Assembly (NCBI RefSeq): GCF_058153355.1 | Contig: NZ_CM177019.1 | Length of the DNA: 64,000 nucleotides | Reading direction: 5' to 3' (one strand) | In this document: positions 57,811 to 58,924 of the stretch, piece after piece | How the letters are laid out: each line of letters starts with the position of its first letter | Position numbering within the stretch: the first letter of the stretch is position 1 | The notes under the pieces: model-generated | Database searches by the model: none | Told to the model about the DNA's origin: nothing | Seen by the model: the letters and a program-made list of their open reading frames with translations, nothing else | Program-made: the position numbers and the translations under genes

Positions 57811-58469
57811 TCCGCTACCTGAATATTGATTCTGCAATTCCGGGACGCTACACTGTCTCCGCACCTTATAAAGCGGGTGCCGGGGGTCGCAGCCCGGAAT
57901 TGCTCGAGGCGATATACGACGCGCCAGCGTCTTTTTTATCGTCCATGCTCGCGCACGCCAGAATTATGGTGGGCTGGGCAGGGGAGCCGAAAGGCTCGCC
58001 GGTTTCCTTGAGCGCCGGTACTGCGAACCCTGTTCAGTTCACCACCCATGAGTTTCGCAGCTCCGGTGGTGGAAGTTTTTCACTGCTCAAGGAGGCTGCC
58101 ATCATGGCTACAGTCCCAACTTCCCCATTCCTCAAAATCGAAGTCGTCAACGGCAAGGCTGTTATTTTCTCTCTGTATGTTGCTTGCCATTTCAAGCGAA
58201 TGCACCAGAACATCGTCGACAAAATCGAGTATCTGAACTGCTCGCGCGAATTTTTCACTCGCAATTTCATACCGGGCACTTATCACATCTATGGTGATTC
58301 TTTGCGTGGTTATTACATCACCCTTGATGGCCTGATGATGCTTCAGCTTGGGTTAAGTCTGCGCACAATGCGGTATTACGAGAGCTGCATTGAAGCATTC
58401 CATGAGGCAGAAACCAGCCTGAATCATACCGCTTTCCGTCGTAATCAATGGGAGGCGCGTCATGTGTAA
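57807..58469 (+). CDS. paralog C, 220-aa protein with the same conserved C-terminal domain (second internal SD/ATG at 58104)
   Basis: SD GGGAGGTG 6 nt before ATG 57807; C-domain nearly identical to paralog B, with 7 of 8 differing codons in a compared stretch synonymous. Confidence 0.55.
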   Translation: MIRYLNIDSAIPGRYTVSAPYKAGAGGRSPELLEAIYDAPASFLSSMLAHARIMVGWAGEPKGSPVSLSAGTANPVQFTTHEFRSSGGGSFSLLKEAAIMATVPTSPFLKIEVVNGKAVIFSLYVACHFKRMHQNIVDKIEYLNCSREFFTRNFIPGTYHIYGDSLRGYYITLDGLMMLQLGLSLRTMRYYESCIEAFHEAETSLNHTAFRRNQWEARHV

Positions 58470-58690
58470 TAACCATTATTCAGATACCACTGTCACGGTA
58501 ATTAAAAACCTGATGGATGCGCTTATTGACATCTCTGTTATTGCAGACAGGGTGCATAAGCACGCCGCCACTGAAACAGAATATACCGGGGCTCTCGTTC
58601 TCATTCATTGGCTGTCATGCAAATTAGCGCCGACCAGGCGCTGGAAACAGCCAGCAAAATGCTCATGGCTGATGTGCAGGAGGTACGTCC

Positions 58691-58924
58691 ATGATTCGCC
58701 GCATCGTTAATTCTCTGTATCACCGATACAACCGTTGCCCCCGTGTGGGGCAGTGGTTTGCCACCAGCAACGGTCACGTTCTGCGGGTTTGCCTGGTCAG
58801 CACCGAAAACCAGAAAGTTGTGTGTGAATTACTGGGGCGTAGCTACACCATCAGTTACCCACTGGTGGTGTTTCAGTCCGGGAAAATGTTTAAACGCCTG
58901 GGAGGTGGCTATGCGTCCGTCTGA
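58691..58924 (+). CDS. 77-aa hypothetical phage protein
   Basis: SD AGGAGGT 7 nt upstream of ATG; overlaps start of the O-like gene. Confidence 0.4.
   Translation: MIRRIVNSLYHRYNRCPRVGQWFATSNGHVLRVCLVSTENQKVVCELLGRSYTISYPLVVFQSGKMFKRLGGGYASV

Follow-up and report, generated by a model that had tools for sequence, protein, structure and literature searches.

Reading frames at the locus

Just upstream of the replication genes of a prophage, the window (the whole stretch of DNA analysed, 64,000 nucleotides) carries a short ORF that begins like a protein-coding gene and then changes character. The question that this raises is whether the ORF encodes a genuine 82-residue protein, is one small gene broken by a frameshift, or conceals two tiny overlapping genes. 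The features concerned are as follows.

58106..58469, + strand: Rha-like (antirepressor-type) ORF, from Pfam matches
58462..58710, + strand: 82-aa ORF with an ATG start, its sequence exactly as first quoted
58462..58599, + strand: native-frame codons 1–46 of the small gene (MCNNHYSD...YTGALV), matching phrog_5146 profile positions 1–43
58600..58601, + strand: site of a 1-bp deletion, one C of a CC pair being gone from codon 47 (Pro)
58600..58710, + strand: out-of-frame tail of 36 codons, LIHWLSCKLAPTRRWKQPAKCSWLMCRRYVHDSPHR, with its TAA stop at 58708–58710
58602..58694, + strand: stranded native-frame 3′ part, HSLAVMQISADQALETASKMLMADVQEVRP, with its TGA stop at 58692–58694; contains the TTG ORF 58608..58694
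58608..58694, + strand: other-frame ORF with a TTG start; its internal ATG at 58617 gives MQISADQALETASKMLMADVQEVRP
58691..58924, + strand: intact 77-aa phrog_1153 gene (full-length match, E 2.6e-42)

The upstream Rha-like gene shares its last 8 nt, stop codon included, with the small gene, whose ATG is at 58462 (ATGTGTAA). A break in the frame of ORF 58462..58710 had been proposed in the first-pass annotation at about codon 50; the break is present, but it lies at codon 47, position 58600. What follows had been described as low-complexity. The composition does change there, but the tail LIHWLSCKLAPTRRWKQPAKCSWLMCRRYVHDSPHR is rich in Arg, Cys and Trp rather than strictly of low complexity, and a composition of this kind is often seen in out-of-frame translation. 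The tail enters the next gene by 20 nt (58691–58710, counting the stop codon). While the TGA of the short other-frame ORF overlaps the ATG of the next gene in an ATGA junction, the 82-aa ORF bypasses this junction and ends inside that gene at 58708–58710.

One family profile in two frames

As it stands, the 82-aa product matches phrog_5146 through its residues 1–48, which cover positions 1–43 of the 74 in the profile (E 6.4e-21). The 25-aa peptide in the other frame (MQISADQ...VRP) matches positions 49–73 of the same profile (E 3.3e-10), in line with the earlier suggestion that a cleaner continuation was to be read in another frame over 58600..58690. Restoring the C at 58600 in silico gives MCNNHYSDTTVTVIKNLMDALIDISVIADRVHKHAATETEYTGALVPHSLAVMQISADQALETASKMLMADVQEVRP, and residues 1–77 of this repaired protein match positions 1–73 of 74 with an E-value of 1.8e-38. 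At the level of sequence, two frames tiling one family profile in this way are the signature of a frameshift, far beyond what would be expected by chance.

We therefore consider it highly likely, with a probability of about 0.9, that a lambdoid prophage's copy of a conserved 77-aa early-operon accessory gene (phrog_5146) has recently been inactivated, and that ORF 58462..58710 is what is left of it. The deletion of one C at 58600 shifts the frame at codon 47: 46 native residues remain in the product, 36 unrelated ones take the place of the last 31, and translation ends at 58710, past the ATGA junction at which the intact gene would stop.

Comparison with intact homologues

Of 5,426 complete E. 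coli genomes searched by megablast with 58300–59000, 324 contain the region. Intact copies were compared from three genomes, together with a contig assembled from a public read set.

L001 (ETEC1732), 1660–1893: intact 234-nt gene, 77 aa, annotated 'hypothetical protein', with the ATGA junction
L002 (RMDEC364), 1663–1896: intact 234-nt gene, 77 aa, annotated 'hypothetical protein', with the ATGA junction
L003 (STEC316), 1663–1896: intact 234-nt gene, 77 aa, annotated 'hypothetical protein', with the ATGA junction
L012 (SRR30347327, Logan contig), 54–287: intact ORF, 77 aa, encoding the exact repaired protein

In all four orthologues the same locus holds a single uninterrupted ORF. In the DNA alignments there is a single gap, where the homologues have GTTCCTCAT and the window has GTT-CTCAT; read as codons, the intact homologues have GTT CCT CAT and the window has GTT C-T CAT. 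The alignment with homologous prophages for which the first-pass annotation had called thus places a gap of a single C at 58600 in an otherwise intact 77-aa gene. Of the two readings offered there, that of a short gene with a recent frameshift is upheld, the intact homologues having one 234-nt ORF and the window being short by one C. Conservation of the long 82-aa ORF, which would have spoken against both, was not seen in the homologues, where it is the 77-aa form that is conserved.

The stranded 3′ peptide is identical to the C-terminus of the intact protein P0004. In an alignment of 26 sequences (25 homologues and the repaired window sequence) each protein comes from a single frame, and the native frame of the C-terminal half is conserved throughout, down to 55% identity, with Leu50, Gln54, Leu61, Ala64 and Asp71 invariant within it. 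A full-length match to the phrog_5146 profile is obtained after repair of the C and is split between frames as the sequence stands, and the intact frame of about 73–78 codons typical of the family is broken by the 1-bp deletion relative to the four intact homologues. On these comparisons the window's copy is to be classed as a pseudogene of phrog_5146 and not as a functional member.

Members of the family (WP_021558728.1, WP_038347356.1 and WP_000336162.1, named 'hypothetical protein' in RefSeq and 'Prophage protein' in UniRef) have the same 77-aa length as the window's copy once this is repaired. They also occupy its position, with the ash/Rha gene on one side and the phrog_1153 gene on the other, and the ATGA junction is common to both. 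The window's copy differs in lacking one C at codon 47, and is native only over residues 1–46. It resembles the ordinary frameshift pseudogenes of cryptic or decaying prophages, those labelled 'frameshifted' by PGAP, in having a single-base indel relative to intact orthologues, in having both halves recognisable in different frames and in lying in a prophage with other damage; the sole difference is that the window's mutation is very recent, with no further decay. The case is already known in kind, being a routine pseudogene of a catalogued but uncharacterised small prophage gene. For annotation, 58462..58710 should be described as a frameshifted pseudogene of a 77-aa hypothetical gene, rather than as an 82-aa protein or two genes.

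Reality and age of the deletion

A sequencing or assembly error, in which the genome truly has CC and the gene is intact, would explain the same observations. A single-base deletion in a run of two bases belongs to an error class of some platforms, and the window's deletion is absent from all 5,426 complete E. coli genomes, the seven closest copies being intact. Set against this, the exact 82-aa product is present in a protein collection from two Logan read-set assemblies, and noise would not be expected to repeat it. The frameshift is thus reproduced on two Logan contigs, though their reads may share the window's source. Over 3,365 bp one of these contigs (L004, from SRR28786219) matches the window at 100% identity, deletion included and with no other indel, with the same proviso that its reads may derive from the source of the window. 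A random assembly error is disfavoured because the SRR28786219 assembly carries the same deletion at 100% identity, and a CC pair is moreover an atypical site for a homopolymer error. It would seem, therefore, that an error is quite unlikely and that the missing C is probably a real allele.

The nearest intact allele is that of L012 (SRR30347327), the one Logan contig on which the exact repaired protein was found. Over 1,560 bp of BLAST alignment with this contig the only gap is the missing C, and within the gene there is one further change, a C/T difference at 58609, silent in the native frame. Since the stranded 3′ part has suffered no further damage, the frameshift mutation is, as judged from these alignments, recent.

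Recoding and two-gene readings

An undamaged remainder could also be accounted for if programmed recoding, by −1 ribosomal frameshifting or transcriptional slippage, restored a protein like the 77-aa form from the window's allele. The native-frame remainder is open, and the shift needed (−1) is in the usual direction of programmed frameshifts. As in known cases of programmed −1 frameshifting (lambda G/GT, dnaX and the IS3-family transposases), two consecutive frames together make up one recognisable protein. Unlike those cases, however, the window has no slippery heptamer: none of the form X_XXY_YYZ was found in any frame of 58462–58710. Nor was there a run of A or T of the length associated with transcriptional slippage (about 7 or more), the longest homopolymers being A5 (58504), G4 (58588) and A4 (58656), all of them away from 58600. 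ORF 58462..58710 thus lacks both kinds of signal, and the homologues are single ORFs, without a conserved two-frame layout. The probability of recoding is in our view next to negligible.

The other reading in the first-pass annotation, two tiny overlapping genes, would have an N-terminal product of 46 to 82 aa and a second one of 25 to 28 aa from 58608 or 58617 to 58694. Neither frame is interrupted, the stop of the second one forms the ATGA overlap with the gene that follows, and the C-to-T change at 58609 creates the TTG that heads the second ORF. That change is, however, silent in the native frame, all intact homologues have the two parts in one ORF, and no Shine–Dalgarno-like purine run precedes either 58608 or 58617. 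As a coding frame the tail of the first ORF lacks conservation: stop codons break it in RMDEC364, L013, L016, L019 and L020. With no two-ORF layout in the homologues and stops in the tail frame of those five, the two-gene reading was dropped as having only a remote chance of being correct. The same five sets of stop codons rule out a conserved overlapping (overprinted) ORF in the tail frame.

Other frameshift alleles

Frameshifts in this gene are not confined to the window. Independent alleles on another backbone were found in L005–L009 (for example L005 3001–3249), P0002 and P0110. The P0002 allele has lost a G 9 nt upstream of the window's site, on an ETEC1732-type backbone, and occurs in 41 collection blocks; the P0110 allele is shifted near codon 33. 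Both give products of 82–86 aa with the same alternative-frame tail. The P0002 deletion was absent from the complete E. coli genomes, in which all close copies are intact. Intact alleles are far commoner, two of them alone accounting for 294 and 112 contigs.

This recurrence might indicate selected inactivation or neofunctionalisation, with frameshifts favoured in lysogens, for example through a cost of the intact product or through some use of the alternative tail that they share. The alternative frame is the same in at least three frameshift alleles of independent origin, two of the deletions (window/P0001 and P0002) lie 9 nt apart, and P0002 is the allele listed in 41 blocks. However, the greater abundance of intact alleles and the intact close copies in complete E. 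coli genomes argue against it, as does the lack of conservation of the alternative frame in homologues, and neutrality alone would lead one to expect a few frameshifts among the thousands of prophages sequenced. There is also a detection bias: the same frame recurs because only the frame without early stop codons gives an ORF long enough to be called and found. Selection of this kind is highly improbable, and we read the recurrent frameshifts as neutral recurrence together with detection bias, leaving selection for inactivation a few chances in a hundred.

State of the prophage

The prophage is integrated beside yecE/yecN/cmoA/cmoB. Its integrase is split into two ORFs on the − strand, 48389..48952 (187 aa, N-terminal) and 47644..48432 (262 aa, C-terminal), by a 5-bp deletion near 48425–48430 relative to a 99.5%-identical copy in E. 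coli FDAARGOS_944. The integrase is on this comparison likely to be a second pseudogene in the same prophage, and another indel that breaks a reading frame in this element is in keeping with ordinary prophage decay. Together, the small-gene pseudogene and the split integrase mark the window's prophage as decaying.

The small gene is optional in related phages. Neither phage PPyecE_EH1910 nor the FDAARGOS_944 prophage has it, and in both the ash/Rha gene and the phrog_1153 gene are immediate neighbours. Given that related phages do without the gene and that the prophage is already decaying, its loss would be neutral or nearly so.

Several RNA genes elsewhere in the window were identified with Rfam. 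A cluster of four tRNAs lies at 63218–63525 (+), and in the related prophage of FDAARGOS_944 a tRNA is located just after the antitermination gene. A second tRNA cluster is at 7772–8070 (+), the MicL sRNA at 40359–40666 (+) and the C0465 RNA at 26291–26368 (−).

Neighbouring genes

The genes that follow 58691..58924 are listed below.

58911..59819, + strand: O-like/DnaD-like replication initiator (phrog_270, E 7.5e-66), the first gene of the replication module
59821..60708: DnaC-like loader (NF005931, E 1.7e-38)

A DnaB-like helicase comes after the loader, and homologues of 58911..59819 are annotated as DNA-binding protein or replication protein O. The position upstream of the replication module that the first-pass annotation gave to the ORF is therefore right. 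The small gene is one of a series of early genes that overlap one another, with a C4/IsrK-controlled Rha-type regulator on one side and the replication genes on the other. A promoter and terminator scan of 57700–59100 found no site inside the small gene, the only terminator-like sites in that interval being the IsrK terminator at 57918–57931 and one within the Rha-like ORF. The polar effect of the frameshift on the downstream replication genes should be small, since the phrog_1153 gene, which loses the ATGA junction, has its own strong ribosome-binding site (AGGAGG, 7 nt before the ATG).

On the upstream side, homologues annotate the RNA genes and the Rha-like stretch together as 'ash family protein' (57807..58469 in the window), and in this ash-type ORF Pfam places Phage_ASH at residues 15–106 and Phage_pRha at residues 122–202. 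Three tandem isrK and C4 antisense RNA pairs are found in the window at 56836–58049 (+), all above the Rfam gathering thresholds.

Pair 1, + strand: isrK 56836–56912, C4 56937–57024 (Rfam)
Pair 2, + strand: isrK 57208–57283, C4 57300–57390 (Rfam)
Pair 3, + strand: isrK 57861–57937, C4 57962–58049 (Rfam), both upstream of the Rha-like ORF 58106..58469

Each pair is followed by a Shine–Dalgarno sequence and the ATG of a Rha-like ORF, so that the isrK/C4/Rha-like module is triplicated (repeat families D1–D3). The pairs lie within the ORFs that match Phage_ASH ('ash family protein' in homologues), and the N-terminal 'Ash' part therefore overlaps the RNA genes. This arrangement of isrK, C4 and a Rha-like ORF resembles the P1 immI module. 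In the Gifsy-1 isrK locus, orf45 and anrP lie downstream of isrK (PMC4825925).

A 643-aa ORF at 55879–57810 (+) probably does not represent a single genuine gene. It lies antisense to a pair encoding a TumE-family toxin and an HVO_A0114-type DNA-binding protein (56437..56724 and 56076..56531, both −; names taken from the annotation of homologues) and then traverses two isrK/C4/Rha-like repeat units.

Predicted fold of the intact protein

With the 26-sequence alignment as input, the AlphaFold2 model shows a hairpin of two helices (residues 5–37 and 45–75), at a moderate mean pLDDT of 72. The 46 codons retained in the window correspond to predicted helix 1 (residues 5–37) and the loop, while the frameshift at codon 47 eliminates the entire second helix of the model. 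Loss of helix 2, including the invariant Leu50, Gln54, Leu61, Ala64 and Asp71, should abolish function, from which we infer that the window's allele would be non-functional.

Searches with the intact protein gave noise only in Pfam and NCBIfam, no match in PADLOC and no match at E up to 10 in a profile search of PDB sequences. When the model was compared by Foldseek with the PDB and BFVD, the hits were no more than helical hairpins and coiled coils of a generic kind (best E 0.37 and 0.27, respectively). Many small early phage proteins act by protein–protein binding. The intact protein may likewise be a two-helix hairpin that probably binds another protein, either as a dimeric helical bundle or by packing against a partner.

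Distribution of the family and relation to satellites

An exhaustive profile search of 1.84 billion proteins in 50%-identity clusters yielded 45 cluster representatives at E up to 0.001, so the family is small. The divergent members (55–68% identity; L013–L021, with the gene at 4001–42xx in each) are found in satellite-type islands with the order integrase, AlpA, (ash-like ORF), family gene, small genes, DUF4222, primase/helicase (DUF927, D5_N or AAA_25) and SSB. P4-like and PICI-type satellites have this integrase–AlpA–...–primase/helicase–SSB order as their core layout (PMC10085698). One of the L013–L021 islands has Clp-protease/capsid genes nearby. The divergent members are placed much as in those satellites, in the interval from ash/epsilon to the alpha primase of P4-like elements or from alpA to the primase of PICI-type islands. 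In contrast to them, the window's copy lies in a lambdoid-type prophage with O-, DnaC- and DnaB-like replication genes, and tblastn detected no similarity in deposited phage and satellite records, P4 perhaps being among these. Neither the 77-aa protein nor its 155-aa fused relative P0113 had a tblastn match among the 50,697 deposited phage records. An identity of the family with P4 orf151 was considered and rejected as lacking sequence support, the tblastn searches with both proteins being negative (P4 is perhaps among the records).

The family is common to prophages and satellite-type elements and lies always just upstream of a replication gene. It is conceivable that phrog_5146 is a factor in helper–satellite cross-talk or replication control and that its repeated frameshift inactivation, in three independent alleles, has been selected in lysogens, but the chance of this is very slender. 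As a recently inactivated copy of an accessory gene the window's ORF is of small importance in itself; the wider lead is the intact family beside the replication genes of prophages and satellite-type islands, which is fit for a functional screen.

At 90% identity the intact 77-aa proteins fall in a cluster represented by a 357-aa 'ash family protein', and the other ash proteins in it are 242–373 aa long. The 77-aa sequence occurs in none of the five ash-family members read from that cluster, and the co-clustering looks like a database clustering artefact rather than biology.

The 3′ end varies within the family (P0079, P0085, P0111 of 86 aa and P0113 of 155 aa), ...ADVQEVRP* being replaced by ...DCENGGGLCVMIVLMP* in some members. 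Others are fused to the next small gene, as in P0113, which consists of phrog_5146 joined to phrog_24341, and this 154–155-aa form is catalogued as phrog_2512; the exhaustive profile search gave no informative domain fusion beyond phrog_24341. Comparison of these C-termini suggests that repeated frame changes may have taken place at overlapping gene junctions in the family.
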